Of a stretch of 48,493 nt of DNA, positions 14,567 to 43,215 are shown in pieces. A program made the translations under genes and the position numbers. The number at the start of each line of letters is the position of its first letter. Position 1 is the first letter of the stretch. The stretch covers positions 1 to 48,493 of the forward strand of contig CAZZCL010000005.1 of assembly GCA_964652295.1 (NCBI GenBank), read 5' to 3'. The notes under the pieces were generated by a model. That model ran no database searches and was not told the DNA's origin. It saw only the letters and a program-made list of their open reading frames with translations. This stretch comes from an uncultured Chthoniobacterales bacterium. Its GTDB lineage: Bacteria; Verrucomicrobiota; Verrucomicrobiia; Chthoniobacterales; CALDSX01.

Positions 14567-14593
14567 TGCGCAAAGAGCATGTGTTATTACGCA
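14567..14593. promoter_or_regulatory. Bipartite operator copy 1 (TGCGCA-N15-TACGCA)
   Basis: Between the divergent GH78 and MFS genes; same 21-bp-period motif as at five other intergenic sites. Confidence 0.65.
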
Positions 14594-14640
14594 GCTTAAC
14601 GATTGTGACACGCTCAGGAACAACTTAATCTTTCCAATTC

Positions 14641-16077
14641 ATGCGTCCCCCTCCAAAACTTCTTGAACGTCTCGCTTACTCGATGGGCGGCGTTGCCAAC
14701 AACTACATGAGCAACGTGCTGCCGATGCTTGCGTTGCCGATATTCAGTATTGGCCTTGGAGTGGAAGCATGGAAGGTTGGTTTGGCGCTTGCTGTTCCAA
14801 GGCTTTGGGATGCGATCACCGATCCGATTATTGGACATCTGAGCGACTCCTGCAAATCCCGTCTGGGACGGCGGCGACCCTTTATTTTTGCCGGGGCGAT
14901 TGCCGCATTTGCCACCTATTCGCTGCTCTGGGTGCCCTCGCCCTCGTGGGGACCGGATGCGATTTTCTGGTGGTTTTTGGTCACCAGCTTTCTTTATTAC
15001 ACGGCCACCACTGTTTTTGCGATCCCCTACATTGCCATTGGCTATGAGATCGCAGCCGACAGCGTCGAACGAGCGAAGTTGATGACGTTCCGCTCCGTTG
15101 TCAGCTCCGTTTTCGGTCTCGGCATGCCGTGGATTTATGCGATGTGCTTTTGGAACTGGCAGGCGATCACGGGCGAAGGCTCTTGGGCATCGCGCTTGGC
15201 GTCGCTGGTCGTGCAGCGAGACGGAGCGCAACTGGAACCGCCGGGCTACCAGATCGTCGGAGTCGCGCTTGGGGTATTCATGGGGCTGGCCGGAATCTGC
15301 ACATTTTTCTGTAAGGAGAATCCCACAGCCGTGCCGACGCAGCGGAATCGCTTTTTTCACTCCTTCGGATTGGCACTTCGCAACCGTCCATTCATTTTCC
15401 TCATTGGGACGCTGATCTTCACCATGTTTGGCATCTTTCTCGTCATGCCCATGGCAACCTATGTGAATATCTACCACATCTTTGGAGGTGACCAACCGAG
15501 GGCGGCCACCGTGCTTGCGCAGGTTGGCACGGTGCAGGCTCTGGCCGGAATCGCGCTGGTGCCCGTGGCAGGCTTTTTAATTGCGCGGTTCGGTGCGGCG
15601 CGACTCATGAAGTTCTTTTTGGCGATCACCGCGCTAAGCTTCGCGATCAAATACTGGACCTACACCCCTGAGAATCCCTGGCTGCAGGTGATCCCGCTGA
15701 TCCTCTGGGCCTTCAGTTGGGCTGGTGTGATGCTGGCGTTCAACGTGATGCTCGGGGATGTCTGCGATCTTGATGATCTCAACACCGGCGAGCGACGTGA
15801 GGGAATCTACGGTGCGATCAATCAATTCCTCACCAAGCTGGTGATTGCGCTGTCCACCGCTCTCAGTGGTGTTCTTTTGAGCTGGTCCGGCATCGTCGCC
15901 GGAGCTGCCCAGCAAACCCCGGAGGCCGTCTGGTGGCTGAGGATTGAATTTTCGATTTTGCCTTTTCTGATTGCGCTCATTGGAGGAGCGGCATTCATCT
16001 TCTACCCGCTCAGCGACCGCAAGGCCAACGAGGTTCGGGCGAAGTTGCTGCAAAAGAAGGGTGAGGTTTCGGCATGA
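14641..16077 (+). CDS. MFS glycoside-pentoside-hexuronide (GPH) sugar:cation symporter
   Basis: RLWDAITDPIIGHLSD...RLGRRRPF, IPYIAIGYEI...ERAKL, DVCDLDDLNTGERREGIY; ~12 hydrophobic segments. Confidence 0.9.
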   Translation: MRPPPKLLERLAYSMGGVANNYMSNVLPMLALPIFSIGLGVEAWKVGLALAVPRLWDAITDPIIGHLSDSCKSRLGRRRPFIFAGAIAAFATYSLLWVPSPSWGPDAIFWWFLVTSFLYYTATTVFAIPYIAIGYEIAADSVERAKLMTFRSVVSSVFGLGMPWIYAMCFWNWQAITGEGSWASRLASLVVQRDGAQLEPPGYQIVGVALGVFMGLAGICTFFCKENPTAVPTQRNRFFHSFGLALRNRPFIFLIGTLIFTMFGIFLVMPMATYVNIYHIFGGDQPRAATVLAQVGTVQALAGIALVPVAGFLIARFGAARLMKFFLAITALSFAIKYWTYTPENPWLQVIPLILWAFSWAGVMLAFNVMLGDVCDLDDLNTGERREGIYGAINQFLTKLVIALSTALSGVLLSWSGIVAGAAQQTPEAVWWLRIEFSILPFLIALIGGAAFIFYPLSDRKANEVRAKLLQKKGEVSA

Positions 16078-18185
16078 GTCAGTTTGCTTTTCAGGATACC
16101 AGCCGGGAGGAGGAAGATCGGGTCCGGGATCTGATTGGACGGCTTTCGCTGCTCGAGAAATGCTCCCAGCTTCGTTATGACGCGCCAGCCATTGATCGCC
16201 TGGGCATCCCGGCTTACAATTGGTGGAACGAGGCGCTGCACGGCGTGGCGAGGAACGGACGTGCCACGGTTTTCCCGCAGGCCATCGGCATGGCTGCCAC
16301 ATGGAATGTGGATCTGGTCAGGGAGCTGGCCTCGGCGATTTCGGATGAAGCCCGGGCCAAGCACCATGAGGCCGTCCGTCAGGGCAGCCGGCAGCAATAC
16401 CAAGGGCTGACTTTTTGGACACCCAATATCAACATTTTCCGCGACCCAAGATGGGGACGTGGTCAGGAAACATGGGGTGAGGATCCGAGACTGACTGCCG
16501 AGCTGGGAGCCGCCTTTGTGCGGGGCTTGCAGGGTGAAGATCCGCGCTATTTGAAAGCCGCGGCCTGTGCCAAACATTTCGCGGTGCACAGCGGGCCGGA
16601 GGCGCTGCGCCATGAGTTCAATGTGGATCCGACGACCCGCGACCTTTGGGAGACGTATCTTCCGGCATTTCAGCGACTGTGCGAGGAGGGCGTCGAGTCG
16701 TTCATGGGTGCCTACAACGCCGTGTATGGCGAGCCCTGCTGCGGTAGCAAGTTCCTACTCAGCGAGGTGCTGCGCGGACGCTGGGGATTTCGAGGTCATG
16801 TGGTTTCCGATTGTTGGGCGATCCGGGATTTCCATCTCGGGCACAAGGTGACGAAATCGCCGGAGGAATCGGCAGCCCTCGCGCTTAAGAATGGCTGTGA
16901 TCTGAACTGCGGTGACGAATACTGCCATGCTCTGGAGGGGGCGGCCCTGCTTGGTTTGGTCAGCGAGGAGGACCTCGACCGGGCCCTCGTCCGGCTCTTC
17001 CGCACGCGGTTCCGGCTCGGGCTTTTTGATCCGGAGGAGAACGTGCCTCACGCCGCCATTCCGCTCGCGGTGGTGGGTTGCGATGCGCACCGCCGATTGG
17101 CCTTCGATGCAGCAGTTCAGTCCATCGTTCTGCTGCAGAATCGCAACGAGTGTCTGCCGCTCGGGGAGGACTGCCGCAGCATCCTCCTCACCGGTCCTTT
17201 GGCGACCAGCGTGGAGGCGATGTTGGGAAATTACTCCGCGCTCAATGGTGCCATCAGCACGCCATTGGAGGGCCTCGCGGGGCGCATTGCTGAAGGGGTG
17301 CGGCTCGATTACCGCAAGGGCTGTCTGCTCGACCGTCCGCGACCGAACCCGTCGAACTGGGCGGCGTTTGAAGCCGTAAAATGCGATGCGGTCATCTGCT
17401 GCCTCGGCCTCACACCCGACCTCGAAGGCGAGGAAGGGGATGCCATCGAAAGCTTTCACAAAGGCGACCGCGAATCCATTGAGCTTCCAGAGAGCCAGCG
17501 CACTTTCTTTCTCGAATTGGCCGGGGCGATCCGCGAGGCGGGAGGCACGACGCGACTGGTGGTCGTGCTCTTTGGCGGGGCGGCTTTTGCCATTCCGGAG
17601 TTGGTCGAACACGCCGATGCCATTCTGCATGCATGGTATCCCGGCGAATCAGGAGGGGAGGCTGTGGCGGCAGTGCTGCTGGGACAGGCGGGGCCAGGCG
17701 GACGCCTCCCGGTTTCTTTTCCCCGCAGCACGGATTGTCTCCCCCCCTACGAGGACTATTCGATGCAAGGGCGCACCTATCGCTTCATGGCACCGGACGA
17801 TGTCCTGTTTCCGTTTGGTTACGGGCTCGGCTACACCACATTTTCATGGTCAGAGGCCACGAGCGAAAAGCTTGGGAGTTCATGGCAAGTAACGTGGGAC
17901 ATCCAGAACACCGGCTCCCGCGACGGAGTCGAGGTTGTGCAGTGCTACCATTTTACGCCCGACTCAAGCATCCCGCGTCTGATTGCTTTCCAAAGAATCG
18001 ACTTGGCGGCTGAGGAGGTCCAAACCGTCCAATTTCCTATCCCGGAGGCCCAACTCACCACAGTGCAGGATGACGGCTCCAACAACCTACTATCCGGCGA
18101 GCATCGCATCGTCTTTACCACCCATGCGCCGTGGATCCAAACACCCGACAATCAAAACGTTGTCTCCATTGTGATTTCCCCGTGA
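16074..18185 (+). CDS. GH3 beta-xylosidase/beta-glucosidase (no signal peptide)
   Basis: WWNEALHGVAR, WTPNINIFRDPRWGRGQETWGEDP, CAKHFAVHSGPE, HVVSDCWAI (nucleophile Asp), FPFGYGLGYT, C-terminal Fn3-like domain. Confidence 0.93.
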   Translation: MSQFAFQDTSREEEDRVRDLIGRLSLLEKCSQLRYDAPAIDRLGIPAYNWWNEALHGVARNGRATVFPQAIGMAATWNVDLVRELASAISDEARAKHHEAVRQGSRQQYQGLTFWTPNINIFRDPRWGRGQETWGEDPRLTAELGAAFVRGLQGEDPRYLKAAACAKHFAVHSGPEALRHEFNVDPTTRDLWETYLPAFQRLCEEGVESFMGAYNAVYGEPCCGSKFLLSEVLRGRWGFRGHVVSDCWAIRDFHLGHKVTKSPEESAALALKNGCDLNCGDEYCHALEGAALLGLVSEEDLDRALVRLFRTRFRLGLFDPEENVPHAAIPLAVVGCDAHRRLAFDAAVQSIVLLQNRNECLPLGEDCRSILLTGPLATSVEAMLGNYSALNGAISTPLEGLAGRIAEGVRLDYRKGCLLDRPRPNPSNWAAFEAVKCDAVICCLGLTPDLEGEEGDAIESFHKGDRESIELPESQRTFFLELAGAIREAGGTTRLVVVLFGGAAFAIPELVEHADAILHAWYPGESGGEAVAAVLLGQAGPGGRLPVSFPRSTDCLPPYEDYSMQGRTYRFMAPDDVLFPFGYGLGYTTFSWSEATSEKLGSSWQVTWDIQNTGSRDGVEVVQCYHFTPDSSIPRLIAFQRIDLAAEEVQTVQFPIPEAQLTTVQDDGSNNLLSGEHRIVFTTHAPWIQTPDNQNVVSIVISP

Positions 18186-18299
18186 TCTGCGCCGAACAAG
18201 GGGCTGCTGAAGGACATTCTCGGGGTCAGACGGGAACTCTCGCTCCTCCAGAATCCACACTCAAGTAATAGAAGTAAGAAAGAACGCAACACTGATGAC

Positions 18300-18354
18300 C
18301 TGATAAGAAATTGCTTTTTAGGCGGCTCCCGGTAGCTGATAGGAATTTGCTTTT
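18300..18354. repeat. 19-bp imperfect direct repeat, possibly IS91-like terminus remnants
   Basis: CTGATAAGAAATTGCTTTT (18300-18318) and CTGATAGGAATTTGCTTTT (18336-18354), 17/19 identical. A GC hairpin CGGCGGC-GTA-GCCGCCG follows. Confidence 0.4.
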
Positions 18355-18397
18355 CGGCGGCGTAGCCGCCGGGGTGGCATTGGGGGTGAGGGTTCAT

Positions 18398-18859
18398 TCA
18401 GGCCATATTCGGGTGACCCGGGTCGCCGCAGCCGCTTTGGATGTTGAGGCTGATCTCGATGCCGAGGCGGTCGGCCTCACGGATCGCGTGGGCGAAGTTC
18501 TACTTCCATCCGTCACTCATGAAGGCCGGGCCGGGCGGATCGGCCAGTTTGGCTCCGTTGTCGCAAATGAGGGCTCCACCGATGCCGTTTGCCTTCATCG
18601 CCTCAAGGTCCTGCGGGATGGATTGCCTGGTGGCCTGTCCCGCATGCCAGAACCACCAGACCCGGAGGCGTGCTTCCTGAGGTGGATTCGCGAATCCCTC
18701 CGCCAGGACGGAATAGTCGATCCATGGCCGGGTTTGAAAATACGACGAATCCCGCTCCGGCTGGCCGGCATGCGGCTCTGCCATCCCTTGCGCAAGAAAA
18801 GCGATTGATGCGAATACGATGACACGTTTCGTGATTGCTTGCTTAATTACCATTTCCAT
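18398..18859 (-). pseudogene. Truncated GH106-like alpha-L-rhamnosidase N-terminus
   Basis: Signal peptide, FANPPQEARLRVWWFW, DLEAMKANGIGGA, AFMSDGWK; in-frame TAG at 18500-18502; then NFAHAIREADRLGIEISLNIQSG and a stop at 18398. Confidence 0.75.
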
Positions 18860-20807: not shown

Positions 20808-20834
20808 TGCGCACCCCTAGATATAATTTGCGCA
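20808..20834. promoter_or_regulatory. Bipartite operator copy 2 (TGCGCA-N15-TGCGCA)
   Basis: About 130-160 bp upstream of the GH120 start; 21-bp period. Confidence 0.65.
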
Positions 20835-21289: not shown

Positions 21290-21955
21290 TCATGGTTTTG
21301 AGATTGGGCGGCTGGTTGTTGTCTTTTCTTCAAAAAATTTCTCCACCGCAGCCAGAAGCTCAGGCGGAAAGGTAATCGCCTCAGGCGTGCTTGAAACCTG
21401 ATAGTCAAAAACCAGCCCTCCCAAAGTTCTTCGAAGCGGAAGCTTCGTCTCAATTGCAACAAATGCGGTTTCCTGAACTTCGCGATTGGACTCTCTGGAG
21501 AAGACGTGGCACTTGATACCGTTGACGTCCATGACCCCTGAAGAGTTGGTCGATCGAACCCAGAGAAGTTCGGGAAAATCGGAGGTTCCGAAGTCAATGT
21601 CCGGCCGCTCCTCGTTGAAATGCGGCATAACAAAATACGTGGGGCTTCCCGAGCGCTTGAGCACCACGACGCCGCGCACGCGCCAAAAGGTCTCCTCATC
21701 GCCATTCGAGTAGGTAACGACGTGAATGGAGCGCTCCCCGGTTCTTTTGCCCGTGCTCTTGATGAGCTGGCGGCGTGTTGGGGCGGGTGGCTTTGCTCCT
21801 TCCGCCGGCTGGCTGGTTGCTGCCCATGTCGCCGGATCGCCAGCTGTCAGATGAAGGGCATCTTCACCCCGCACTGTCTTTGGCTTCCCATTTTCTTCTG
21901 CGCTGAGTTGCGAAACCAAGCACCCAAAAAGTAGAATTAAAAAAAACGCTTTCAT
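21290..21955 (-). CDS. Secreted hypothetical protein, last gene of the pilin-like cassette
   Basis: Signal peptide MKAFFLILLFGCLVSQLSA; ATGA overlap with the cassette A gene; DFPELLWV motif. Confidence 0.75.
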   Translation of the reverse strand: MKAFFLILLFGCLVSQLSAEENGKPKTVRGEDALHLTAGDPATWAATSQPAEGAKPPAPTRRQLIKSTGKRTGERSIHVVTYSNGDEETFWRVRGVVVLKRSGSPTYFVMPHFNEERPDIDFGTSDFPELLWVRSTNSSGVMDVNGIKCHVFSRESNREVQETAFVAIETKLPLRRTLGGLVFDYQVSSTPEAITFPPELLAAVEKFFEEKTTTSRPISKP

Positions 21956-24900
21956 TCGACTACAAGTTCGGAAGTTCTCTCGAGAACTTCTCCGGTGAAA
22001 CGATCGATGGCCACATGCACCCAGTAGCGTTTTTCACCCTCGACGAGAAATTGTCCATTCACGTTTCGTCCCGGCTGGGCAATGACATCAATCATGAGAT
22101 TCCATACCCTTGTTGTTGATACATCCGCCAAGGCCCGCACGACGGCCTCCCGACGTCGCTTGACGATGGCATCGTCGGTGCTGCTCGGGGAGAGGGGAAA
22201 TGCGGTCGGCGAACCGACGAAGCGGTTCACGAGCTCAGCGCGGTTTTGCAAGGGGGTGGTTTGTGTCGTGGTGACCAATGCCTGTGCGAGGCTGTTACTC
22301 TGTGCGTCCAGAAGAGGCACGGGAGCGGTGCCTGTGCCCGAGAGAGGGGTTTCGTCCTTCAAGGTGCCTGCGATCATGGCCTCAAGCACCTCAGCGTTGC
22401 GGGTGTTCGGATTGATCACTCCAGCACGCAGGCCGGTGACGGTGGGTTCCTTGAGGCAGAAGATATCCAAAAGGGCGCTGTCGCCGCTGTTTGCTGTAAA
22501 GAAATCGATGCTTTTCCATGGGGTGTCACGAAAGACATACCCCAACTCTCCAACGGAACGGAACGGGCGGTTCAGGATAATGGGACGGCTGAAGTTGCGC
22601 CCGCCACTCACATTGGCGCTCAGCGCCAATGGTTGGCCCGCGTAGTTTCCCGAGGTCTCATAAACTCCATCAGCGCCCCGGACCACCCCATCGGGATCGT
22701 GATAGTAGGTATTGAGTGCACCTACATTGGCTGCGTTTGCTGAGTTGATAGAAACGGTTCCCAGAAAGGCGGTTGATGCATTGATTCCGCCCGCCTGAGG
22801 CGTGCCCGTCTTCCACCAACCGCTCACCAGCGAATTGTCTGCGGCATTAAAGAAAATTTGGCGATGTCTCCCTGCACCCAAGTCGGGTCGAAGATTGCTC
22901 CAAAGTGTCGAGTCGCCACCATCATCGCGACTGGCTGGAAAGCGGCCACTTCTGGGGTCCCAGAGGGATTGTTGGGGCAGGGGTGAGACCGAGACTGCGG
23001 GGAAAGGCTGGTTCACTCTGCGCACGGGGAACTGGCTCCCGAACAGGCCGGAATAAGTGAAATACTCTCTCCACTGCTCGCCGCGTCGATACGCCAAAGT
23101 AATGTCATAGCGACCAATGGTCTTGACCTGGTTGACGTTGGCAACCGTGGTTGGTTCCGGGGGAGTGCTGGGATACGTGGCCGGAATCGTTTGATTCGCT
23201 ATCGTTTCTACGGGGCTGGGCCAGGTCTTTCGGCAACTCACCGCTGATCCTGATGAAATAAAATCAAACGCGCCAACCGGGATAGCCTGCTGCATCCGTG
23301 GGGTTGCTGGAGGAGCGGGCGTGATAGTGCCGCCAGACGGGAGCAATTCCGGCTCTCGAAAGTCCGAGGCATTTGCCGAAAAATCATACGACACTGGCTG
23401 GTATGTTATCTGTGGGTTCTGGGCTTGTTGTGGGAAGCCTGGTGGATTGGTGGGACCAAAGGGTGGACTGGATGCCTTCCAGTTATAGAGCACGCCTGCC
23501 GCGTTCGATGGCGAAACAGTCACTCGAAACTGGGTGGGCGAATCTGGGGGCAACGGAGACGGCTGACCTGTATCGTGCGGATTCCAAAGCTCAGGAACGA
23601 CATAGTTTATCCAACTCCCCAAACTCGGTGCTGCGGGCTCGTCTTGAATTTGCGCTGCCATCATAATACGGTTCAAATAAGGCAAGTCTTCAATACCAAA
23701 AAATCGGAATCCATTGAGACGAATTTCCGTGGGGAAACTTTCAGAATCATATTGATCGATCATGTTGGCCCCGATCTGCAGGACTTGGTATTTGGGCTGC
23801 GTGGAGCGCAACTCGGGGGGACTCGGGTTTCCCGTCCACCCAAACTCCCGTTCCTCCTGTCGGAATGGGCCGGTCGTTCGTTGAGGCCGATAATAAGCAA
23901 ACCCCCTTCCGAGCGATCCCACATGGATCGCCGCTTGCATTAATTCAAAAAAATCCGGTTCCCGAGCTTCGCTGGCGGACAGCGCAGCCACTTCTTGAAG
24001 TCTAAGGATGCGCTGGGGATCCCGTCCCCCAAACGGAGTGCCGGACGAAGTGACGCCATAGCTCCAGGCGTTTGCCAAGTTATCCCACGCAAGGCCGAAG
24101 GCTGCCCGGATGTTTTCCCCGGTCCCCCTGTCATTGTATCGCGGGTCGGAGGATGGAAGATCAGCACTGGGGCCGTCGCCTGTAATCCAAGACAGCCTTT
24201 CAAGTGGAAACCTGTTCGTTACCAGCGGCTCGCGGACCTGTGCCTGGGAGCCGCTGAGGCGTTCAAACGGATGCTGCACGCGCACCATCGGCAGTGCCGG
24301 GTTGAACTGATCATCCAGTCCCACCGCCATGTTCCCGCCGGCAGAAAGCACGGCGTCTCGGGGATTGGAAGCGTCTCCGAGAATCCTGGGTCTCGCTGGG
24401 TCGGGAAGCCATGACGGGGCGTCAAGATCACGACTGGTTGTTCCAAGATACCGGAGGTAGTTCTGGCGCTCTGCCACCGACCCGCCGGACAGCTGCTTGA
24501 GAACGAAGTCGATGAGCGATTGTCGCGAGGGAAAGGCGCGGTCCGCGGATGTGCCGCTGCCGCCGACGGTGAGGTGCCCATTGGGATGTTCCAGAGAAAG
24601 CTCCAGATAGCGATCCGCACCTGCATCCAAGGTGGAGCGGTTCCGCCAACCCACCAGCGTCTGGCTGTCGGCTGCCGAGATCCCGATGCGAGTGAGATCG
24701 GCGGCGGCAAGAATTCCTTTCCGCCCAACGGGTTCCGTCTGCGTTTCGGCGGGCATGCCGCTGGCATCGGCGGGATACCCTGCAACGTTCATATCTAACA
24801 ATCCTCCGGCATCATAGATAGCGTAAGCGAAGCGTCCGATCACATCCGCATTGACCTGCTGGGGATTTCCTCCATTGCGGTCCACGTAGATCCACGTTGG

Positions 24901-25494
24901 AATCTGGAAGGAATCGTCACCCGTAACCGCTGGCGTTGGATCCGTCGCGGAGGGGTTTGCCTTGGGCAGCAGGAGTGTGCGGTTCCATCGGGCCGGGCTG
25001 ACAAATCGGCCATTCCTCGATGGTGTTGTGGTCGCATCTGTCGAGGCGCGCTGGCTTGGCGGATGGGCAGCCGCATTTGGAAACACGGGCTGCCCGTTAA
25101 ATTCCGTTGCCGAATCAAAAAAGGGCTGTGCAGAGCTCCATTTGACAAGATTGGCTGGTCGCAAGCTTGCAGTTGGATACGGCAACGCGCTGCGGGCCGT
25201 GGCAGGAACATACGTCGCAAAGAGTGTTCCATCACTGATCTCGAGCACAACCCCAGAGCTGCCCGCGGCGATCTCTTGTTTCAGGTCACCGAGGACGGTA
25301 TCGACGGCTCCCCGAGCCAGTCGCTCGGCACGAATGGTATTCGCGCTGTGCGCCGATACTTGGCGGTTGCTGACTGCTCTGGAGAAAAACGCCAACACCA
25401 GCCCTGTGACCAATACGAGAAGAGCCAAAACGACAACCAGAGCGAATCCGCTTCTGCGAGGTAAGGGGAGGAGGGGAGGGAAATCAGTTTTCAT
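21952..25494 (-). CDS. Verru_Chthon cassette protein A-like (large PilX/GspK-type prepilin-like protein)
   Basis: Prepilin-like RRSG/FALVVVLALLVLV lacking Glu5; 1180 aa; conserved-looking IGRFAYAIYD, ILNRPFRSVGELGYVFRD and EGEKRYWVHVAIDRFTG. Confidence 0.8.
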   Translation of the reverse strand: MKTDFPPLLPLPRRSGFALVVVLALLVLVTGLVLAFFSRAVSNRQVSAHSANTIRAERLARGAVDTVLGDLKQEIAAGSSGVVLEISDGTLFATYVPATARSALPYPTASLRPANLVKWSSAQPFFDSATEFNGQPVFPNAAAHPPSQRASTDATTTPSRNGRFVSPARWNRTLLLPKANPSATDPTPAVTGDDSFQIPTWIYVDRNGGNPQQVNADVIGRFAYAIYDAGGLLDMNVAGYPADASGMPAETQTEPVGRKGILAAADLTRIGISAADSQTLVGWRNRSTLDAGADRYLELSLEHPNGHLTVGGSGTSADRAFPSRQSLIDFVLKQLSGGSVAERQNYLRYLGTTSRDLDAPSWLPDPARPRILGDASNPRDAVLSAGGNMAVGLDDQFNPALPMVRVQHPFERLSGSQAQVREPLVTNRFPLERLSWITGDGPSADLPSSDPRYNDRGTGENIRAAFGLAWDNLANAWSYGVTSSGTPFGGRDPQRILRLQEVAALSASEAREPDFFELMQAAIHVGSLGRGFAYYRPQRTTGPFRQEEREFGWTGNPSPPELRSTQPKYQVLQIGANMIDQYDSESFPTEIRLNGFRFFGIEDLPYLNRIMMAAQIQDEPAAPSLGSWINYVVPELWNPHDTGQPSPLPPDSPTQFRVTVSPSNAAGVLYNWKASSPPFGPTNPPGFPQQAQNPQITYQPVSYDFSANASDFREPELLPSGGTITPAPPATPRMQQAIPVGAFDFISSGSAVSCRKTWPSPVETIANQTIPATYPSTPPEPTTVANVNQVKTIGRYDITLAYRRGEQWREYFTYSGLFGSQFPVRRVNQPFPAVSVSPLPQQSLWDPRSGRFPASRDDGGDSTLWSNLRPDLGAGRHRQIFFNAADNSLVSGWWKTGTPQAGGINASTAFLGTVSINSANAANVGALNTYYHDPDGVVRGADGVYETSGNYAGQPLALSANVSGGRNFSRPIILNRPFRSVGELGYVFRDTPWKSIDFFTANSGDSALLDIFCLKEPTVTGLRAGVINPNTRNAEVLEAMIAGTLKDETPLSGTGTAPVPLLDAQSNSLAQALVTTTQTTPLQNRAELVNRFVGSPTAFPLSPSSTDDAIVKRRREAVVRALADVSTTRVWNLMIDVIAQPGRNVNGQFLVEGEKRYWVHVAIDRFTGEVLERTSELVVE

Positions 25495-26434: not shown

Positions 26435-26435
26435 A

Positions 26436-27872: not shown

Positions 27873-27899
27873 TGCGCGAAGTTGAATGAGAAATACGCA
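27873..27899. promoter_or_regulatory. Bipartite operator copy 3 (TGCGCG-N15-TACGCA), nearest the pilin cassette
   Basis: About 50 bp upstream of the D-like ORF start; 21-bp period. Confidence 0.55.
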
Positions 27900-27988: not shown

Positions 27989-28015
27989 TGCGTAAACACG
28001 ATTCTATACTGCGCA
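27989..28015. promoter_or_regulatory. Bipartite operator copy 4 (TGCGTA-N15-TGCGCA), upstream of rhaA
   Basis: About 120 bp upstream of the rhaA ATG; 21-bp period. Confidence 0.6.
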
Positions 28016-30635: not shown

Positions 30636-30656
30636 GAAGCGGCGATTTCATCGCAA

Positions 30657-32621: not shown

Positions 32622-32648
32622 TGCGCAATACGAATCTTAAATCACGCA
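32622..32648. promoter_or_regulatory. Bipartite operator copy 5 (TGCGCA-N15-CACGCA)
   Basis: About 85 bp upstream of the GH106 operon; 21-bp period. Confidence 0.55.
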
Positions 32649-35700: not shown

Positions 35701-35920
35701 AAGCAACACACTCGAAATCACGGTTGCCAATACGTGGTGGAATCGACTTGTGGGCGCCAAACGCGGCATCAAAGGCATCGAAGGGCCCGAACCTTTTGTC
35801 AGCAACTTCAGCGACAAACTTTTCGAACGACACCTGAGTGGCGAGAGCGAACTGCTGCCGGCTGGTCTGCTCGGCCAGGTGCGGATTATGACCACTGAAA
35901 ATAGCGAGGCAAAGCCATGA
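32732..35920 (+). CDS. Alpha-L-rhamnosidase, GH106, secreted
   Basis: Signal peptide; FLSPPESTKPGCYWYW, NSPGWSMSGGPWV, GLEIDKMS, ADSYEVG, WAEAFT, C-terminal ITVANTWWNRLVG and PAGLLGQVR. Confidence 0.9.
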   Translation: MILQCLQNRKSLPVPVRILRALLLAALWVFVAGTAGADDLQRDFLSPPESTKPGCYWYWLDGHYSKEGLTKDLEQMQAIGIGRAYIGLITFMSRLPLNSELKPWSNEWWSHIEHGVKEGGRLGIDIGLFNSPGWSMSGGPWVEPAQAMRYLVRTELRLKGPQTFSGPLAVPGDIGDFQEVAVLAYPAPGAGGEIVFQSNQSVEMIALDADQPFTARGLVIQPAKAVNHVEVELQASEDGQEFRPVKTFEVKRSLLNANVGPVPLAPISVSFPASTARHFRLVLKKPSELGEIRLLSAPVVEDFAGKALLKMFQGTKPPFNFYVWPDQDELEDPSLAIAPKEVINLSKKMDANGTLTWDVPPGEWIVARFGTLPTGVKNAPACRDTTGLEIDKMSQEAVRHHFDSYAGKLLERLPENDRKALKFLVADSYEVGPQNWTDGFEAEFQKTYGYDPLPFLPAIYGTLVGSAEQSNRFLWDLRRFVADRIATEYVGGLREVAQENGMKVWLENFGHWGFPGEFLNYGGQTEEIGAEFWIDDGDKKGIVEVPAAASAAHIYGKPVVWAEAFTSPRQTYEHSPRDFKKLGDWAYANGINQFILHVNIHQPWEDRLPGINASFGSAFNRHNTWYGMAKSWIDYQRRSSVLLQHGTHVADVAYYIGEDTPKMAGSQSPPLPAGYASDFINAEVLLTRAEVKDKKLVLPGGKSYRLLVLPPSEPMRLEVLERIVGFVEAGLPVFGPLPKRSPSLENYPASDERVRELATKIEDRVLSGKDLKQALASVPPDVSGLNPKEILYLHRQSPDTDLYFLSNQTDKPQTITPVFRAQRPIVELWHADLGKIQSITGESVDSGTKVPITLEPHGSIFVVFRDQPTPGAVKAVAEKAENLEPIQEITGPWNVTFDPKSGGPQKVIAFDTLKDWSKDPDPSVQFFAGTATYRREFTFDGNANHSADGRVVLDLGQVEEIAEVTLNGQTFPELWKPPYRVDVTDAVRQGSNTLEITVANTWWNRLVGAKRGIKGIEGPEPFVSNFSDKLFERHLSGESELLPAGLLGQVRIMTTENSEAKP

Positions 35921-37329
35921 ATGGAAATTATATAAAGATTACAAATATCATCGTTCTGACCATATGGTGCGTGGCCACGTCGGTCACGGCGGCTGCTGAA
36001 GGGAATCTTCCGGCGATTCCAGAGGTTCCGGGCCCGGAGGTGGAAAGAAGCAAGGTCGAGGCTGAGTATCTGGCCAAAGCCAGGCAGGGGGCGGAGGAGC
36101 ACCGGAAGGCGGATGCGACCTTCATCTTTGTGGATGCGCAAGGCCAACCATTGGCCGGGGTTCCGGTGCGGATTCGCCAGACGAAGCTTGAATTCCTCTT
36201 CGGCTGCATTGCCTTCGACCTCCCCCGCAGCAGCGAAAAGGAACGTTGGAAAGAGCGCTTCGGCAGGCTTTTCAACTTCGCAATTCTGCCATTCTATTGG
36301 GCTAATTACGAGAAGACGCAGGGAGATCCACAGCATGAATCGCTGACCCAAACGCTCGACTGGTGCAGAGAACGGGGGATCACAACGAAGGGGCATCCTT
36401 TGGTGTGGCAATGCCACCCGGCCGGACAACCCTCATGGCTGACCCAGGCGTCCCGGACCGAGGTGGATATGATAACCGGCGAGCAGAGGGAGGTGGTCAC
36501 CACCGCGCCGAGATACTCAAAGGAGGAGGTCGAGCAAATGCAGTTTGATCGCGTTAGACGGGAACTAAGCCACTTCGCAGGGCGAATTGACATCTGGGAT
36601 GTTTACAATGAAGCCGCCTGGTGGCTGCGCGCGGGCGCGCCGGGGAAGGCTGATTTCTGCGAGAAAGCATTTCGCGCCGCGCGGGAAGCCAATCCCCAGG
36701 CCACGCTCATCCTCAACGATGAAGGCATGTATGAGGACAAAGCTCGAAGGGATGGCCTATATCAGCTCGTATCGCGCCTGCAACAACGTGGTGCGCCAAT
36801 AGACGCCGTCGGGTTCCAGTCCCACGCCCCCAAGGAAGTCTGGTGGATGCCCGAGCGCGTCGTTAAGACCCTGGACCTTTTCAAGGAACTGGATTTGCCC
36901 ATCCACATCACGGAAGTCATTGCGGTGTCCAACGGCGAGCCGATCAAAGGCGGTTGGCGCGAGGGAAATTGGACTGAGGAGGCGCAGGCCGATTTTGCCG
37001 AGTTCTATTACCGCATTTGGTTTGGCCACCCGTCTGTGGCCTCAATCAATTGGTGGGGATTGAGTGATCGGGATATCTGGAAGCCAAAGGGCGGCCTGAT
37101 TGACGAGCAATACAACCCGAAACCGGTCTATGACCGCCTTGATCAACTGATTAACCAGGAATGGAAGACAAACGTGGACCTCGAAACCGATGAACAGGGG
37201 CGAGTGACTTTCCGCGGGTTCCATGGTGAGTATGAGATATCCATACCGATGCCGGACGGACGCACGGACACCCGTCAGGCCATCATTACCCGGAACGGGG
37301 ATAATCAAAAGAGATTCACGGTCAATTAG
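35917..37329 (+). CDS. GH10 endo-xylanase-like glycoside hydrolase, secreted
   Basis: KGHPLVW, WDVYNE (acid/base), IDAVGFQSH, PIHITE (nucleophile); ATGA overlap with GH106. Confidence 0.85.
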   Translation: MNGNYIKITNIIVLTIWCVATSVTAAAEGNLPAIPEVPGPEVERSKVEAEYLAKARQGAEEHRKADATFIFVDAQGQPLAGVPVRIRQTKLEFLFGCIAFDLPRSSEKERWKERFGRLFNFAILPFYWANYEKTQGDPQHESLTQTLDWCRERGITTKGHPLVWQCHPAGQPSWLTQASRTEVDMITGEQREVVTTAPRYSKEEVEQMQFDRVRRELSHFAGRIDIWDVYNEAAWWLRAGAPGKADFCEKAFRAAREANPQATLILNDEGMYEDKARRDGLYQLVSRLQQRGAPIDAVGFQSHAPKEVWWMPERVVKTLDLFKELDLPIHITEVIAVSNGEPIKGGWREGNWTEEAQADFAEFYYRIWFGHPSVASINWWGLSDRDIWKPKGGLIDEQYNPKPVYDRLDQLINQEWKTNVDLETDEQGRVTFRGFHGEYEISIPMPDGRTDTRQAIITRNGDNQKRFTVN

Positions 37330-37415
37330 GTTGGTTAAATCAGAATCGCGAAATCGAATCCATGAACACCGATATAGATCTATAGACAATGTTAATGACA
37401 AAGAGTGATAAAAGT

Positions 37416-38861
37416 ATGAAAATAATCATTACAAATTATGCGGCATGGTTTCTGGGCGTTAGCTTGTTCTGCCTACCTGCCGCTCGGGTCGGGGCGGAGA
37501 CCTCAAATGCCGATATAAACTTCGCTGCCGCCGACAAGCGTCCGAATATCTTGGTCATCTACACGGACGACCAAACCTATAGTGCCATTGGGTATCGAAA
37601 TCCCGAGGTGTTCACGCCAAACCTTGATCGTCTCGCAGCGGATGGAGTCCGCTTTGATCGTGCCTTCACCACTTCGCCGCTGTGCCTGCCGGCCCGCGCA
37701 TCTGTTCTCACGAGTGCCTACCCCCAGCAACACGGGGGCGTGGCCCTCCATGTGGGCAGATTCAATGAACGGGTCATCCGCAAGAAAGAATTCAAGACGC
37801 TCCCAGAGGCCATGAGCGAACTTGGGTATCACACGGCCTTTCACGGAAAATCCCACCTCGGAGACCCCAAAACCTACGGATTCATGGAAGGAGAGGAAAC
37901 CAAAGATGTCACGGATCCGGAACTCTTGAATTTTACTCAACATTTTTTTCAGAACCACGCAGACAGCGACCGCCCCTTCTTCCTCTGGCTGGCACCGCAC
38001 AAACCCCATCTTGTGTTGAGACCTCCCCAAGAGTATCTCGACCTCTATGCCGGGAAAACATTCGAGGAGGATCCCAACTTCCGGGTCGAGCCACCGATGG
38101 AAAGCCTCTACAATCAGTCCGGTGAAGGGACGGATTTCTTCAGGGACAGCAAGATACCCATGAGCGTCGGTCCGGGAAGCGTCAAAGGCCTGATGGCAGG
38201 ACCGCCCCGGACCCGGGAAGATATTCAAAGTGCCAAACGCCTTTATTATGCCGTTATCTCCTATCTTGATGACCAGATCGGGCAGGTGATCGAGCAGCTT
38301 AAAGCGGCCGGGCTTTACGAGAATACCATCATCATATACACGTCGGACAACGGCTACTTCCTTGGCAATCACGGGCTGGGCAACAAGGTGACCATGCATG
38401 AAGAGTCCGTCCGGGTGCCGATGTTTATTCATTCTCCCCTGCTTCCAAACAAGGGAGCGGTCAGCGAGGCACTGGTTTCCGACCTGGATGTCTACCCCAC
38501 GATTCTTGAGCTTGCCGGCAAAGAGCCTCCCTCCAGCCTGATGGGGCGTTCGCTGCGACCGCTGCTGGAGAATCCGAATGCGCCCTTTCGCGATCACATC
38601 ATTGCCGAATCGGCCGGGGTGCCGGAGAGACGGCTCGGAACCGGCCATCGAATGGTCCGTACCGATCGTTACAAATATATTTTTACCACGCATGACGAGG
38701 AGGCCTTTTTCGATCTTCAGGAAGACCCGTTCGAGATGACTAATCTCGTTGGTGAACCGGAACTCAAGGAAGCAATCGAGAGGCATCGAGCCCTGCTCAA
38801 GGATTGGCAGGTCAAGGTTGGAGAAAAGCGAGTCCCATACTCAAAAACTTCCGAGCCTTGA
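37416..38861 (+). CDS. Formylglycine-dependent (Cys-type) sulfatase, secreted
   Basis: RPNILVIYTDDQ, TPNLDRLA, CLPARASVLT (CxPxR), GKSH, YTSDNG, EESVRVP. Confidence 0.93.
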   Translation: MKIIITNYAAWFLGVSLFCLPAARVGAETSNADINFAAADKRPNILVIYTDDQTYSAIGYRNPEVFTPNLDRLAADGVRFDRAFTTSPLCLPARASVLTSAYPQQHGGVALHVGRFNERVIRKKEFKTLPEAMSELGYHTAFHGKSHLGDPKTYGFMEGEETKDVTDPELLNFTQHFFQNHADSDRPFFLWLAPHKPHLVLRPPQEYLDLYAGKTFEEDPNFRVEPPMESLYNQSGEGTDFFRDSKIPMSVGPGSVKGLMAGPPRTREDIQSAKRLYYAVISYLDDQIGQVIEQLKAAGLYENTIIIYTSDNGYFLGNHGLGNKVTMHEESVRVPMFIHSPLLPNKGAVSEALVSDLDVYPTILELAGKEPPSSLMGRSLRPLLENPNAPFRDHIIAESAGVPERRLGTGHRMVRTDRYKYIFTTHDEEAFFDLQEDPFEMTNLVGEPELKEAIERHRALLKDWQVKVGEKRVPYSKTSEP

Positions 38862-38956
38862 TCAGACACAATTAACTTGTTTCTCAGCGGTGCGATTTAG
38901 ATCGGATTATGAAAACATCTGCGATTGCTGAAAGCCTTCCATTGAAGGTTATCCAA

Positions 38957-40411
38957 ATGAAAAACATAAGTTTTGTTGTTATTCTAGTGTTTGGTCTGAA
39001 CATCGCACCTATCCATGCGCAAAAGACGTCAGAGAGTGCCGACTTGCCGGATTTTGGACGCGCGCCAATGTTTGAGAACGGACAAACGATCTGCTTTCTC
39101 GGTGATAGTATCACCCAAGGGGCTCTCTATCAAACCGTCATCGAATACTTCTATGCAACACGTTACCCAGACCGTGCGATAACGTTTTGGAATTGCGGAA
39201 TCGCTGGAGACACAGCGCAGAGTATCCTCGGCACAGAAGCCTACCGTTTACAGACCGATGTCCTGGGCCACAAGCCGGACTTAGTCGTCGTCATGCTGGG
39301 CATGAACGATGTTAATCGCGGACTTTATAAGCCAATAAAAACGGCATCTCCGGACAACCGAAATGCAGCGCGTGAAGCCGCGCTTCAAAATTATCGCGAC
39401 AATATGGGTGCAATTTTTGATAAGATCCAGGATTTCGGTTCTAATCTCATTCTCCTGACTCCTACGATTTATGAAGAAAGCCCGAATGTAACGGGAGACG
39501 ATGGACTCATTTTAAAAGGAGTTAATGCTGCGCTGGGAATTTGTGCTGAATGGGTGCGGGCCGAAGCCTCTCGCCGTGAAACCGGTTGGGTCGATTTTCA
39601 TGCCGTGCTGGGAGAGCTCAACGCCAGAGAGCAAGCAGCACAGAAAGATTTTTCACTGCTCAAATTAGGCAGAACCAGCGGGCTCGATCGGGTTCATCCT
39701 TACATGCCGGGTCATTGGATCATGGCCTATCTCTTCCTGAAGGCTCAAGGGCATCTACCCGTTGTCAGCCAAATCGAGATCAACGCGGAAACAGGCGATG
39801 CGGGGAGGACGTTCCGATCGGAGGTGGAAGACATCCGTGCCACGTCAGACACTGTAAGTTTTGACTATACAAGCGAAGCACTGCCGTTCGCTGTTGCAGA
39901 AAATGGAGTCGCTGCTCTGCAGGTGATTCCACTGGTCGAGGAATTAAGCCAAGAGATAATTTCCCTTCAAAGGCTCACTCCGGGTCACTACGAATTGAGC
40001 ATCGATAACAGGATCGTTGGAACCTTCTCCGACGCGGAGTTTGCCGACGGCATCAATCTTGGTGGAAATGACAAGACTCCACAGTATCAGCAAGCCCTCA
40101 AAGTTTATAGATTGGCTGCCGATAGGTCGAGGCTCGGCGCTAGGATCCGATCCGGGGTTGCGGCACGATATGCGGCTGCAAAATACGAGAAAATCGATCC
40201 GATGGATGAAGCCGCCATCGAGCGGTCCATCCTAAACCGGATCGAGCAGGTAGAAGCAACAGGAGGAAATACAACGTCACTCAAGGTCGCGCTTGAGGCC
40301 GTGCGCAGCAGGGAAAAGCTTGATCAGGACTATGAGAAACTTGGAAAACTCATGCGCGATGCTGCCATTCCCATAAAGCGACAGTATGCCCTTATCAAAA
40401 CGCAGCCATAA
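38957..40411 (+). CDS. SGNH/GDSL-family esterase (probable carbohydrate acetylesterase), secreted
   Basis: Signal peptide; FLGDSIT, CGIAGD, LGMNDV, DRVHP blocks. Confidence 0.88.
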   Translation: MKNISFVVILVFGLNIAPIHAQKTSESADLPDFGRAPMFENGQTICFLGDSITQGALYQTVIEYFYATRYPDRAITFWNCGIAGDTAQSILGTEAYRLQTDVLGHKPDLVVVMLGMNDVNRGLYKPIKTASPDNRNAAREAALQNYRDNMGAIFDKIQDFGSNLILLTPTIYEESPNVTGDDGLILKGVNAALGICAEWVRAEASRRETGWVDFHAVLGELNAREQAAQKDFSLLKLGRTSGLDRVHPYMPGHWIMAYLFLKAQGHLPVVSQIEINAETGDAGRTFRSEVEDIRATSDTVSFDYTSEALPFAVAENGVAALQVIPLVEELSQEIISLQRLTPGHYELSIDNRIVGTFSDAEFADGINLGGNDKTPQYQQALKVYRLAADRSRLGARIRSGVAARYAAAKYEKIDPMDEAAIERSILNRIEQVEATGGNTTSLKVALEAVRSREKLDQDYEKLGKLMRDAAIPIKRQYALIKTQP

Positions 40412-40557
40412 ACTCGTCCATTCACTTGCCGAGAAAGAGCCTTCCTCGAGCTTGATGGGGCGACCACTTCAACCACTTATCGAAAACCTCCAACTTTTGC
40501 TCCAACACAAATCACTTTCTTCACAATTGTAGAAAATCATCTGAGAATTCTGAAATT

Positions 40558-43155
40558 ATGCCCAAAACACAAAACGGGAGCAACGAATGCAATCCTCTCC
40601 CGAATTCCGCCAACACAGTCACAACCGGAGCATTCCGCATCACCCTCCTCACGGAGCGTATGGCGAGGGTGGAGTGGTCGGAGACGGGGCAATTTGAAGA
40701 TCGGCGTAGCTTCGCGGTGGTCCATCGCAATCTTCCCAAGGTTGCGTATGAGACAACGCCGACAACCGACGGGATCCGAATTGTGACGCCTTCGATGCAG
40801 ATCGACCTTCCGGACGCTAACGTTCCGCCGCAACCGGAGATGGTCCGCGTGGAGGTGTTGATCAACGGAGACTGGGTTGAGCGCCGCCTCGATCCGAGCG
40901 ACGCGGGCAATCTGGGCGGCACCCTGCGCACACTGGACGGGATGAATGGGCTCCGGAAATTCAGCAATCCCTATGTCAGGAACCCGTCCGATTCCGAGGA
41001 GCAATCTCTGGGTATGGGCTTGTTGTCCCGTTCCGGTTGCGTCTTTTTTGATGACTCTGGATACATTGTGTATGAGAAGAAGCCGGACTCGCCGTTTCAG
41101 TGGCCGGCCCGCCGGACGGATCCAGGCGCACGGGATTGGTATGTTCTCGCCCATGGACACGACTATGTCGGCGCCCTGAAAGAGTGCTCGCGAGTTTTCG
41201 GACGTGCTCCCTTGATCCCCTATTACGCGTTGGGTTATTGGTATTCCCGCTATTATCCTTACACCGAAGAGGAGTTCAAAACACTGGTTCAACGATTCGA
41301 ACAAGGCGGGATTCCTCTGGATGTGCTCGTGATCGACATGGATTGGCACAAGGAGGGTTGGACCGGGTATTCATGGGATGACAATCTCCTGCCAGATTGG
41401 CGCACATTTCTCGGTTGGTTGAAAGAACGCGGGCTGCACATCAGCCTGAATCTGCATCCCCATGACGGCGTTGGAAAACATGAAGATGCCTTTTCTGCGT
41501 TTTGTTCGGAGTTGAATCTGGATGCCGGGCAAACGGAGCGGGTGCCCTTTGATTGTGTCGATCCCAAGTGGATGGAGGCATATTTCAAACATCTGCATCA
41601 TCCTTACGAAGAGGCCGGGGTCGATTTCTGGTGGATGGACTGGCAGCAGGGCGAGCAAACCTCGATCGAAGGCTTGGACCCCCTTCCTTGGTTGAATGAG
41701 ATTCACTGGGAGGATATGCAATCGAGACATCCAGAGCGCCGCCCATTGGTATTCAGCAGGTATGGCGGCCTCGGTTCCCATCGGTATCCCATCGGCTTTT
41801 CCGGCGATACCGTCATTAGCTGGGAATCCCTTGCTCTCCAACCGCATCTCACCGCGACGGCGGCCAATGTGCTTTTTGGCTACTGGAGTCATGATATCGG
41901 CGGCCACCACTTTGCAGATCTGAATCCTGAACTCTTCACCCGTTGGCTCCAGTTCGGCGTTTACTCGCCGATCCTTCGAACGCACGGCCTGATCGACAGG
42001 CGGCTCGATGAGTATCCTTCGCCTTTCCGGCAGATCATGGAACGTGCGATCCGTCGGCGTTACGAGTTGGCACCCTACATCTATTCCGAAATGTCGGGAT
42101 TGCCTCGGAAAGGGATCTCCCTCGTGCGCCCCATGTATTATGCATTTCCTGAGCAGGACGAAGCCTACCAAGCAACGGATCAATACCTCTTCGGCGGGAA
42201 AATGATCGTTGCCCCAGTCTTATCCCCTGTCAGTTCTCACACTGGACTTGCCGAGTCGAAGGTATGGTTGCCGGGGGGCGACTGGTGGGATACGGAGACC
42301 GGCACCCTGGTTCAAGGAGGCCGCTGGCATGTGAACGCGTATGCCCTGCATGAGACTCCCGTTTTTGTGCGGCCCGGCACAATGATCCCGGAGCAACCCG
42401 CACCGCTGTGCCTGGGGAATTCACCTCGAAACAAGCTGACGCTCCGCGTCTATCCCGGAGCAGATGGCGATCTCGATCTTTATGAGGACGACGGAATTTC
42501 GCAGGGCTACCTTGCCGGGCAGCACGCCGTCCTGCCCTGTTCTCTACGCCAAGGCCCGGAGGGTTTCACCCTTACGCTCGATCCCATCCAGGGCAGCTAC
42601 TCCGGAATGCTCACGCGGCGCGAGGTGTTTGTGATTTTCTCGTTCATTCCTCCACCAATCTCCGTTGAGACCAACGGTCGGTCGGTCATCCAAGCTTCTC
42701 ACTATGATGGTAGTTCGCTCCGCTTGCAGGTAAACGCCGGTGAATTGGACCTGACACAAACCAATATCTTACAGGTGACGGCGCACACGTGGCCCTCGGG
42801 GTTCCCAAATGGCTTTCCCGCTCTCCAATCCAGAATTCGACTGCTTCGGGCATTTTTCGAAAAAGAAAGCCGGGGCCTTCCCCTGGCCAATGATCCGGTG
42901 TTCGTCCGCTTGGGTCAACTCGGCAACCTGATCTCCAGATCCCCCGAACGAATCTTTGACTTGCTGGATGAAGTCGCGAGTCTGGTTGAGTCGCTAACAA
43001 CAGATTCCACCAAACGAGCCCGGGAACTTCTGGCGCGGGAAGTCATTCGCAAGGAAACCACATCCTATCAGTGTCGGATGTTAGCAGCCCATCTGGAACT
43101 CCTTGAACTCGCATCGAACCAGATCCGCACAACTTGGGAAGTGTCGGGTAGGTGA
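40558..43155 (+). CDS. GH31 alpha-glycosidase (alpha-xylosidase-like), no signal peptide
   Basis: ALGYWYSRY, VIDMDWH, FWWMDWQQG (nucleophile), RYPIGFSGDT, WSHDIGGH, RWLQFGVYSPILRTH, LYEDDG. Confidence 0.9.
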   Translation: MPKTQNGSNECNPLPNSANTVTTGAFRITLLTERMARVEWSETGQFEDRRSFAVVHRNLPKVAYETTPTTDGIRIVTPSMQIDLPDANVPPQPEMVRVEVLINGDWVERRLDPSDAGNLGGTLRTLDGMNGLRKFSNPYVRNPSDSEEQSLGMGLLSRSGCVFFDDSGYIVYEKKPDSPFQWPARRTDPGARDWYVLAHGHDYVGALKECSRVFGRAPLIPYYALGYWYSRYYPYTEEEFKTLVQRFEQGGIPLDVLVIDMDWHKEGWTGYSWDDNLLPDWRTFLGWLKERGLHISLNLHPHDGVGKHEDAFSAFCSELNLDAGQTERVPFDCVDPKWMEAYFKHLHHPYEEAGVDFWWMDWQQGEQTSIEGLDPLPWLNEIHWEDMQSRHPERRPLVFSRYGGLGSHRYPIGFSGDTVISWESLALQPHLTATAANVLFGYWSHDIGGHHFADLNPELFTRWLQFGVYSPILRTHGLIDRRLDEYPSPFRQIMERAIRRRYELAPYIYSEMSGLPRKGISLVRPMYYAFPEQDEAYQATDQYLFGGKMIVAPVLSPVSSHTGLAESKVWLPGGDWWDTETGTLVQGGRWHVNAYALHETPVFVRPGTMIPEQPAPLCLGNSPRNKLTLRVYPGADGDLDLYEDDGISQGYLAGQHAVLPCSLRQGPEGFTLTLDPIQGSYSGMLTRREVFVIFSFIPPPISVETNGRSVIQASHYDGSSLRLQVNAGELDLTQTNILQVTAHTWPSGFPNGFPALQSRIRLLRAFFEKESRGLPLANDPVFVRLGQLGNLISRSPERIFDLLDEVASLVESLTTDSTKRARELLAREVIRKETTSYQCRMLAAHLELLELASNQIRTTWEVSGR

Positions 43156-43188
43156 GATCTTCAGTCGAAGATTTCCCCTTTTGAGTTG

Positions 43189-43215
43189 TGCGCAAAATAC
43201 ATTTACTTTAGCGCA
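43189..43215. promoter_or_regulatory. Bipartite operator copy 6 (TGCGCA-N15-AGCGCA)
   Basis: About 80 bp upstream of the first GH42-like gene; 21-bp period. Confidence 0.6.

Follow-up and report, generated by a model that had tools for sequence, protein, structure and literature searches.

A symmetric 27-bp motif in fixed register with nine predicted promoters of a rhamnose and glycan gene cluster in a Chthoniobacterales bacterium, and its candidate XylR-type regulator

We analysed a stretch of 48,493 nucleotides from an uncultured Chthoniobacterales bacterium (the window), which corresponds to positions 1-48493 of contig CAZZCL010000005.1 (C5; 62,707 bases) in assembly GCA_964652295.1 (genome G000; 3.2 Mb, 205 contigs, 59% G+C, rated 99% complete). 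An earlier note on this sequence had described six copies of a two-part motif, TGCGCA-N15-NRCGCA, ahead of operons for glycan degradation. The motif is real, but C5 carries eight copies rather than six, and the core of the motif is symmetric. The eight sites precede nine predicted promoters, site 1 serving both directions, and about 30 genes on this one contig would be under the control of these promoters. We consider that the palindrome is probably the site of a two-fold symmetric activator, most likely the only XylR-type regulator of the genome, the gene of which adjoins the cluster.

The motif and its distribution

All six sites of the earlier note were found where it had placed them, including the one at 27873, which reads TGCGCG...TACGCA; the two additional sites are at C5:51883 and C5:55661. 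The motif TGCGCA-N15-NRCGCA gave six matches in the window, at only five places because the palindromic site at 20808 is counted on both strands, compared with 0.10 matches expected from 100 dinucleotide-preserving shuffles (largest, 1). The core TGCG-N19-CGCA was invariant and symmetric in all eight C5 sites, which also share the 21-bp period, and the consensus is a 27-bp palindrome, TGCGYAA-N5-AT-N6-TTRCGCA. Open reading frames (ORFs) were called with a crude heuristic, which placed 89.5% of the genome in coding sequence. By these calls all eight sites are intergenic, and 10-13 of the 15 nt in each spacer are A or T, in agreement with the earlier description of intergenic sites with AT-rich spacers. 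In the six sites of the window, the distance to the nearest ORF start, on the side of the TTG triplet described below, is 37-133 nt. The base counts, symmetrised over nine sites (18 half-oriented sequences), were as follows.

Position 1: T, 18/18
Position 2: G, 17/18
Position 3: C, 18/18
Position 4: G, 18/18
Position 5: C, 14/18
Position 6: A, 12/18
Position 7: A, 13/18
Position 13: purine, 17/18
Position 14 (centre): A or T, 18/18

In the intergenic DNA of C5, the core occurred eight times with the N19 spacing and 0-1 times with each of 13 other spacings (N13-N26). In the intergenic DNA of the other 204 contigs, the N19 form occurred 20 times compared with 13-24 times for the other spacings, and in coding DNA 167 times compared with 177-217 times. 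The N19 form was thus enriched only in C5 intergenic DNA; since there was no such enrichment on the other contigs, there was no sign of sites beyond C5. Four look-alike intergenic matches (C58:11644, C30:15597, C16:13470 and C19:6614) have a TTG at 9 nt in none of their eight flanks and were therefore taken as chance, as was a full-pattern match at C3:11643, which lies inside the ORF of a 663-aa membrane protein. A second full-length rhaA (68% identical; G000:C18:1704-2936) and rhaA fragments (G000:C189:621-925) are located off C5, where the motif was not found. Over 93 non-motif columns of the nine promoter regions, the mean pairwise identity was 0.252, compared with 0.253 expected from the composition, so that a single copied repeat does not account for the sites.

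Register with the promoters

A TTG lies exactly 9 nt beyond a hexamer at all eight C5 sites (9 of 16 flanks), always on the side of the gene start, and site 1 (14567) has it on both flanks. When the core was combined with TTG at gap 9, nine intergenic matches were found on C5, compared with 0-1 at each of 12 other gaps (3-15), and there was no match in the intergenic DNA of all other contigs. Within the window, the core extended by N9-TTG gave seven matches, whereas 0.04 were expected from the shuffles. We also examined 11 promoters, nine on C5 and two in L053 (a contig of a relative, see below): in eight of them nAnnnT lies 17 nt after the TTGnnn hexamer, compared with 0-3 at 19 other spacings tested, and the remaining promoters include one with nAnnnT (TATGAT) at 16 nt and another with it at 18 nt.

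Thus the sites precede what appear to be sigma-70-type promoters with a weak -10 element, the palindrome spanning about -71 to -45, and the fixed 9-nt register with a TTG -35-like element points to the layout of an upstream activator site. The layout of AraC/XylS-type regulators, in which half-sites about two helical turns apart have a fixed place beside the -35, was found at all nine promoters. The earlier note had called the sites operators; this was not borne out, since they lie upstream of the promoters, with the proximal hexamer 9 nt from the TTG. A sigma-54 reading of the TTGC was dropped because, on our own inspection, the GG/GC spacing did not match.

Sites and operons

Gene identities were taken from Pfam and NCBIfam. 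The labels given in the earlier note agreed with Pfam (GH78, MFS_2, GH120, N_methyl pseudopilin-like proteins, RhaA, GH106 and GH42M). The sites, their promoter elements and the genes behind them are listed below.

Site 1, 14567..14593, divergent: TGCGCA-N15-TACGCA
-35-like elements of site 1: TTGCGA 14557-14552 (minus strand) and TTGTGA 14603-14608 (plus strand), with nAnnnT 17 nt on at both sides (CACTGT and TAATCT)
10512..14439, minus strand: operon left of site 1, GH78 and then a split LacI-like gene
11677-14439, minus strand: GH78 alpha-L-rhamnosidase (Pfam), with a 26-nt gap to the LacI-like ORF
10940-11650 (helix-turn-helix, HTH) and 10512-11060 (sugar-binding domain), minus strand: LacI-like gene in two overlapping ORFs
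14641..18808, plus strand: operon right of site 1, three ORFs
14641-16077, plus strand: MFS_2 sugar transporter (Pfam)
16074-18185, plus strand: GH3 (Pfam); the best NCBIfam match is a Xyl3A-type beta-xylosidase model, below its cut-off
18311-18808, plus strand: ORF of unknown function
Site 2, 20808..20834, minus strand: TGCGCA-N15-TGCGCA, promoter TTGGCA 20798-20793 (minus strand) with AATGGT 17 nt further
18843-20675, minus strand: GH120 (Pfam), behind site 2
Site 3, 27873..27899, minus strand: TGCGCG-N15-TACGCA, TTGCAG 27863-27858
21290..27826, minus strand: pseudopilin-like five-gene operon behind site 3
26954-27826, 26436-26957 and 25484-26434, minus strand: proteins with an N-terminal methylation motif (Pfam N_methyl)
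21952-25494 (1180 aa) and 21290-21955 (221 aa), minus strand: proteins downstream of the three N_methyl genes
Site 4, 27989..28015, plus strand: TGCGTA-N15-TGCGCA, TTGCAC 28025-28030 and GAAGAT 28048-28053
28078-29388, plus strand: rhaA (Pfam RhaA, E=3e-192), first in the operon 28078..31757 behind site 4
29436-30635, plus strand: rhaT-like rhamnose transporter (Pfam RhaT, E=4e-67)
30657-31757, plus strand: thioredoxin/AhpC-TSA-like protein
Site 5, 32622..32648, plus strand: TGCGCA-N15-CACGCA, TTGTTG 32658-32663 and GACACT 32681-32686
32732..43155, plus strand: operon behind site 5, with GH106 rhamnosidase, GH10, sulfatase, GDSL esterase and GH31 (Pfam)
Site 6, 43189..43215, plus strand: TGCGCA-N15-AGCGCA, promoter TTGCCT 43225-43230 and TATGAT 43247-43252 (16-nt spacing)
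43252..48493 and past the window end, plus strand: operon behind site 6, with a 1043-aa GH42M-domain protein and then a GH42-like protein; on C5 it continues with two further ORFs, to 51723
Seventh site, C5:51883: TGCGCA...GGCGCA, preceding a PEP-CTERM protein
Eighth site, C5:55661-55687: TGCGCG...TGCGCA, with GH42 and two small ORFs leftward

The enzyme set suggests a glycan containing rhamnose, xylose and galactose, sulfated and acetylated; which glycan it is we infer from the enzymes. The proposal of the earlier note that the rhamnose operons and those for carbohydrate-active enzymes (CAZymes) form a common regulon remains probable, as does its view that one factor reads two hexamers 21 bp apart. 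In the operon of site 3, the best NCBIfam matches are the Verru_Chthon cassette models D, B, C and A (among TIGR02596/02598/02599/02600) in gene order, all below the cut-off (scores against cut-offs: 39.1/70, 43.5/51.4, 29.7/256.5 and 27.8/332.3) and confined to the N-terminal ~60 residues.

Some further features of the cluster were noted. Transcription is predicted to start about 35 nt past each TTG (near 28060, 32693 and 43259, for example). For the MFS and GH42M-domain genes this places the predicted start very close to the listed start codons (14641 and 43252): the MFS gene would be nearly leaderless from ATG 14641, and the in-frame ATG at 43294 is a likelier start of the GH42M-domain protein than the listed TTG at 43252. 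The split of the LacI-like gene resembles the result of a frameshift near 10940-11060; Logan contigs of the likely source run match 10400-12894 without differences, which is not independent support for the split. An AbiEi-type antitoxin-like gene (9516-10115) is located left of the cluster, a PIN-domain ORF (31878-32441) between the rhaA operon and site 5, and a phage-type integrase (C5:59682-60956) right of the regulator. The G+C content of the cluster is about 55-58%, compared with 59% for the genome, and the cluster may be a mobile island.

The candidate regulator

The candidate regulator is a XylR-type protein of 385 aa encoded at C5:55701-56858, rightward of the site at C5:55661 and 7 kb past the window end. 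It has the Pfam domains Peripla_BP_3 (residues 118-277) and HTH_18 (residues 310-384), and its residues 18-384 align with the E. coli XylR structure 4FE4 (phmmer, E=2e-35). It is the only XylR-type gene of the genome: among 15 scored candidates, only the regulator itself and a weak AraC HTH on C3 passed. The earlier note had named an AraC-type regulator encoded elsewhere as one candidate; the AraC-type HTH is indeed present, in a XylR-type protein, but the gene adjoins the cluster. The equivalog models of RhaS (33.2 bits, cut-off 288) and RhaR (28.2 bits, cut-off 363) gave matches to the HTH region only, and the NCBIfam RhaS, RhaR and AraC models scored 28-33 bits against cut-offs of 208-363. 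There was no xylose isomerase or kinase family among the scanned C5 genes, and the motif does not resemble the E. coli XylR consensus; in its mode of action the regulator may resemble XylR, but it is not an ortholog of the xylose XylR.

A consensus scan of the region upstream of the regulator gene found one strong promoter, TTGACG-16-TATTAT (C5:55654-55681). The eighth site (C5:55661-55687) overlaps it, with one hexamer between the -35 and the -10 and the other directly after the -10, and occupancy would therefore be expected to shut this promoter. On the other side of the site, a TTGAAC of the divergent GH42 promoter lies at 9 nt.

From the computed architecture, statistics, conservation and regulator domains, we infer binding, activation, autorepression and inducer as follows. 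A symmetric dimer of the XylR-type protein would bind the 27-bp palindrome and recruit RNA polymerase from a fixed place upstream of the -35, at site 1 in both directions. The LacI-like domain of the regulator may sense a sugar released from the rhamnose-containing glycan and thereby switch the regulator. Through the site across its own promoter, the regulator would repress its own gene while activating the divergent GH42 promoter.

Conservation and recurrence in relatives

Close orthologs of the regulator were not found, the identity being at most 37% in the 701 other genomes searched. A XylR-like match with E<=1e-20 was present in 106 of 301 genomes of the order (best identity 35%), and 14 of 401 genomes of the phylum passed E<=1e-42 (best identity 37%); note that G157, which is flagged as unpublished, enters only the tallies of the 301-genome regulator and pattern searches. 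A scan of genome contigs for the regulator gave just a match to a 27-residue fragment (L022), and a scan of metagenome contigs gave one relative, L053, with a regulator 89% identical. Upstream of the L053 regulator, both hexamers, TTGACG, TATTAT and the leftward TTG are kept, while five of the first six spacer bases are changed. The L053 ortholog of window gene 46414 (87% identity) has its own site, TACGCG-N15-TGCGCA, and TTG lies at 9 nt at both L053 sites. Predicted membership in the regulon has thus been retained in L053, although the site itself is different and non-homologous.

L053 is rearranged, and the GH42 gene beside its regulator is cut after about 97 residues; at L053 8117-9922 the ortholog of gene 46414 loses similarity after residue 488 and abuts the GH42 remnant. 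The junction may have arisen by a deletion that brought two convergent genes together, or the assembly may be chimeric. In run X2, from another study, a relative of ~88-90% identity covers most of 11735-30399. It is without 18137-21274, which holds GH120 and site 2, and has 109 other letters instead; it has 1,703 extra letters inside rhaA (28223-28229), and in place of 14385-14635, the stretch with site 1, it has 254 letters that are unlike those of C5. The rhaA loci of 19 relatives had no AT-spaced site before rhaA; in L016 a single match with one mismatch lies 350 bp upstream of rhaA, without TTG at 9 nt.

We also searched the 301 genomes of the order with the strict pattern TGCGYA-N16-RCGCA-N9-TTG. 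G000 gave 11 matches, nine at real promoters and two in coding sequence; 41 of the 301 genomes, including G000, had any match, and none but G000 had more than four. For five genomes of family f8, whole-genome counts of the pattern were dominated by coding background and were not used. In G145 there are three matches within 9 kb of a single contig, all of them perfect TGCGCA-N15-TGCGCA sites followed by TTG at 9 nt. A divergent XylR-like gene begins about 100 bp from the first of them, and the three sites stand ahead of a DUF5107 gene, a GH95 operon and a GH123/MFS operon, suggesting a regulon for a fucose/hexosamine-containing glycan that uses the same cis-code. The cargo of this locus (G145:C15:80646-101999; L074 and L075) comprises DUF5107, a desaturase/Rieske fusion, GH95, two GH123, MFS and a SASA esterase. 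On G137:C34 there is one such site, and a divergent XylR-like gene begins about 55 bp from it. The layout of site and TTG thus recurs in these two genomes of the order next to XylR-like genes, with enzyme cargo unlike that on C5. Identity in the DNA-binding domain was tried as a marker of the G145 regulator and does not single it out (38%). G187 has four matches on four contigs, of the form TGCGCAGGC...TGCGCAGG, which look less like regulatory sites than like a dispersed repeat rich in G+C.

Tentatively, and with less confidence than for the regulator on C5 itself, we consider it possible that a subset of Chthoniobacterales-type XylR-like regulators shares one cis-code: a symmetric dimer would read TGCGCA boxes 21 bp apart through a first recognition helix of the SRRSLE type and dock 9 nt from the -35, one palindrome thereby serving promoters on both sides.

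Evaluation of alternative explanations

Several observations weigh against the proposed activating XylR-type regulator. The consensus of the E. coli XylR sites consists of A/T-rich direct repeats, unlike TGCGCA, and one dimer is reported to bind two separate duplexes rather than two adjacent half-sites (PMC3561964). No nAnnnT was found at 16-18 nt in the promoter of site 3, the -10 elements of G145 and G137 are less regular, and our gene calls rest on the crude ORF heuristic. Among 29 XylR-like loci of the order (1.5-kb flanks), a related site was present in four, all of genus g26 and without TTG at 9 nt, while the remaining 25 had no such site within 1.5 kb; in the phylum sample, none of 11 XylR-like loci had such a site within the same distance. 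The regulator of G145, which shares the motif with G000, is 31% identical overall and 38% in the DNA-binding domain; it is not especially close, and therefore close orthology fails to explain the common motif. In addition, the LacI-like gene is located within a regulated operon, directly downstream of GH78, and a second AraC-type HTH is encoded on C3.

The last three observations, and the several ORFs of the cluster without a Pfam match, would also suit real sites that are read by another factor, such as the LacI-like protein (10512-11650), the C3 AraC-type protein or an unrecognised DNA-binding protein. We regard this as unlikely, although it is the strongest of the alternatives. The operators of the LacI family are contiguous palindromes of 14-20 bp, and hexamers 21 bp apart are unlike them. 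The LacI-like gene is, moreover, split into overlapping ORFs, and together with its position in a regulated operon and the operator form this makes its product a poor candidate; the suggestion of the earlier note that the local LacI could be the regulator thus found no support. In the 21 kb of L053 that keeps two sites no LacI-like gene was seen. Beside the motif in G000, L053, G145 and G137, the only type of regulator that could be recognised was in each case a XylR-like one.

It is less probable still that the XylR-like protein is the factor bound at the sites but serves chiefly to repress the nine promoters, or to loop the DNA there in an architectural role. The site at the regulator's own promoter does overlap the -35/-10 interval, and sites 3 and 4 are 116 bp apart, which would suit looping of the kind described for E. 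coli XylR (PMC3561964). At none of the nine target promoters, however, does the site reach the -35-like TTG; it ends at one fixed distance upstream and leaves the polymerase unblocked, as is typical of activator sites, and the target -10 elements are weak, with only A2 and T6 kept, as expected of activator-dependent promoters. The bipartite motif might itself be a promoter of an extracytoplasmic function (ECF) sigma factor, in which TGCGCA would be the -35 element and CGCA the -10. Promoters of this type have a CG-containing -10 and about 17 nt between the conserved blocks, and the motif resembles them in both respects. We consider this very improbable: the symmetry of the motif extends to A7/T21 and to the A/T at its centre, the motif is used on either strand (at site 1 in both directions), and a separate TTG-N17-nAnnnT promoter lies at a fixed distance from it. 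Chance matches or functionless copies of a dispersed repeat are practically negligible as an explanation. TGCGCA-like words are common in a genome of 59% G+C, with 505 coding matches at <=2 mismatches, but the six and seven matches in the window exceed the shuffle expectations of 0.10 and 0.04, the spacing and gap controls single out N19 and gap 9, the flanks are unrelated, and the sites are kept in L053 and recur in G145 and G137; the spacing, gap, shuffle and flank controls thus contradict this explanation.

Implications

In the literature searched we found nothing on the control of polysaccharide-degrading gene clusters in Verrucomicrobia, and neither the present motif nor the Verru_Chthon cassette was covered there. 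For the cluster described here, every layer of the proposed control can be read from sequence, from the site and its promoter register to the probable regulator with its putative autoregulation, and among 300 other genomes the search pattern led to two additional loci. The predicted placement of a pseudopilin-like cassette of unknown role under the control that governs rhamnosidases and rhamnose catabolism gives a lead to the function of the cassette. If the common cis-code is true, the CAZyme regulons of this little-studied group would be predictable from sequence, and the Verru_Chthon-type pseudopilin-like cassette would be a glycan-induced part of the machinery for polysaccharide acquisition.

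Comparison with known systems

The proposed system is of a known kind, an AraC/XylR-family activator with sites beside the -35; as far as the literature was searched, the motif, the regulon, the bidirectional use of the palindrome and the inclusion of the pseudopilin-like cassette appear to be new. AraC (araBAD/araC) and RhaS/RhaR (rha) are dimeric activators whose two half-sites are separated by about two helical turns and either touch the -35 or lie just upstream of it, and their regulator genes are divergent from the target operon and autorepressed. The present system resembles them in the half-site layout, in the divergent and, as predicted here, autorepressed regulator gene, and in the rhamnose theme. 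It differs from AraC/RhaS in that its sensor domain is LacI/periplasmic-binding-protein-like whereas theirs is of the cupin type, and from AraC and RhaS/RhaR in that the half-sites are symmetric with a 15-nt spacer.

The four XylR-like regulators of genus g26, in the same order (L024, L025, L026 and L043), include the three best full-length matches of the order search (34-35% identity) and share the first recognition helix (SRRSLExRFRxALG). At 43-61 bp ahead of the regulator gene, their loci have TSCGCA boxes with a 21-bp spacing. These boxes differ from the C5 sites in a direct-repeat extension, GGTAAT-N2-TSCGCA, and in having no TTG at 9 nt, and there is a single clear site per locus in the 33-40 kb examined.

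The domain architecture of the regulator is like that of E. coli XylR (PDB 4FE4/4FE7), and both regulator genes lie within a sugar-utilisation cluster. In the E. coli study, the XylR sites are two-repeat sites of ~37 bp that adjoin the -35, binding depends on the sugar, and the protein loops DNA (PMC3561964). The sites of both systems, IA/IF in E. coli and those described here, are thus two-part and adjoin the -35, but ours are 27-bp palindromes with a G/C core whereas those of E. coli are, in the same account, A/T-rich direct repeats (PMC3561964). The cargo differs likewise, consisting of rhamnose and CAZyme genes here and of xylAB/xylFGH in E. coli.

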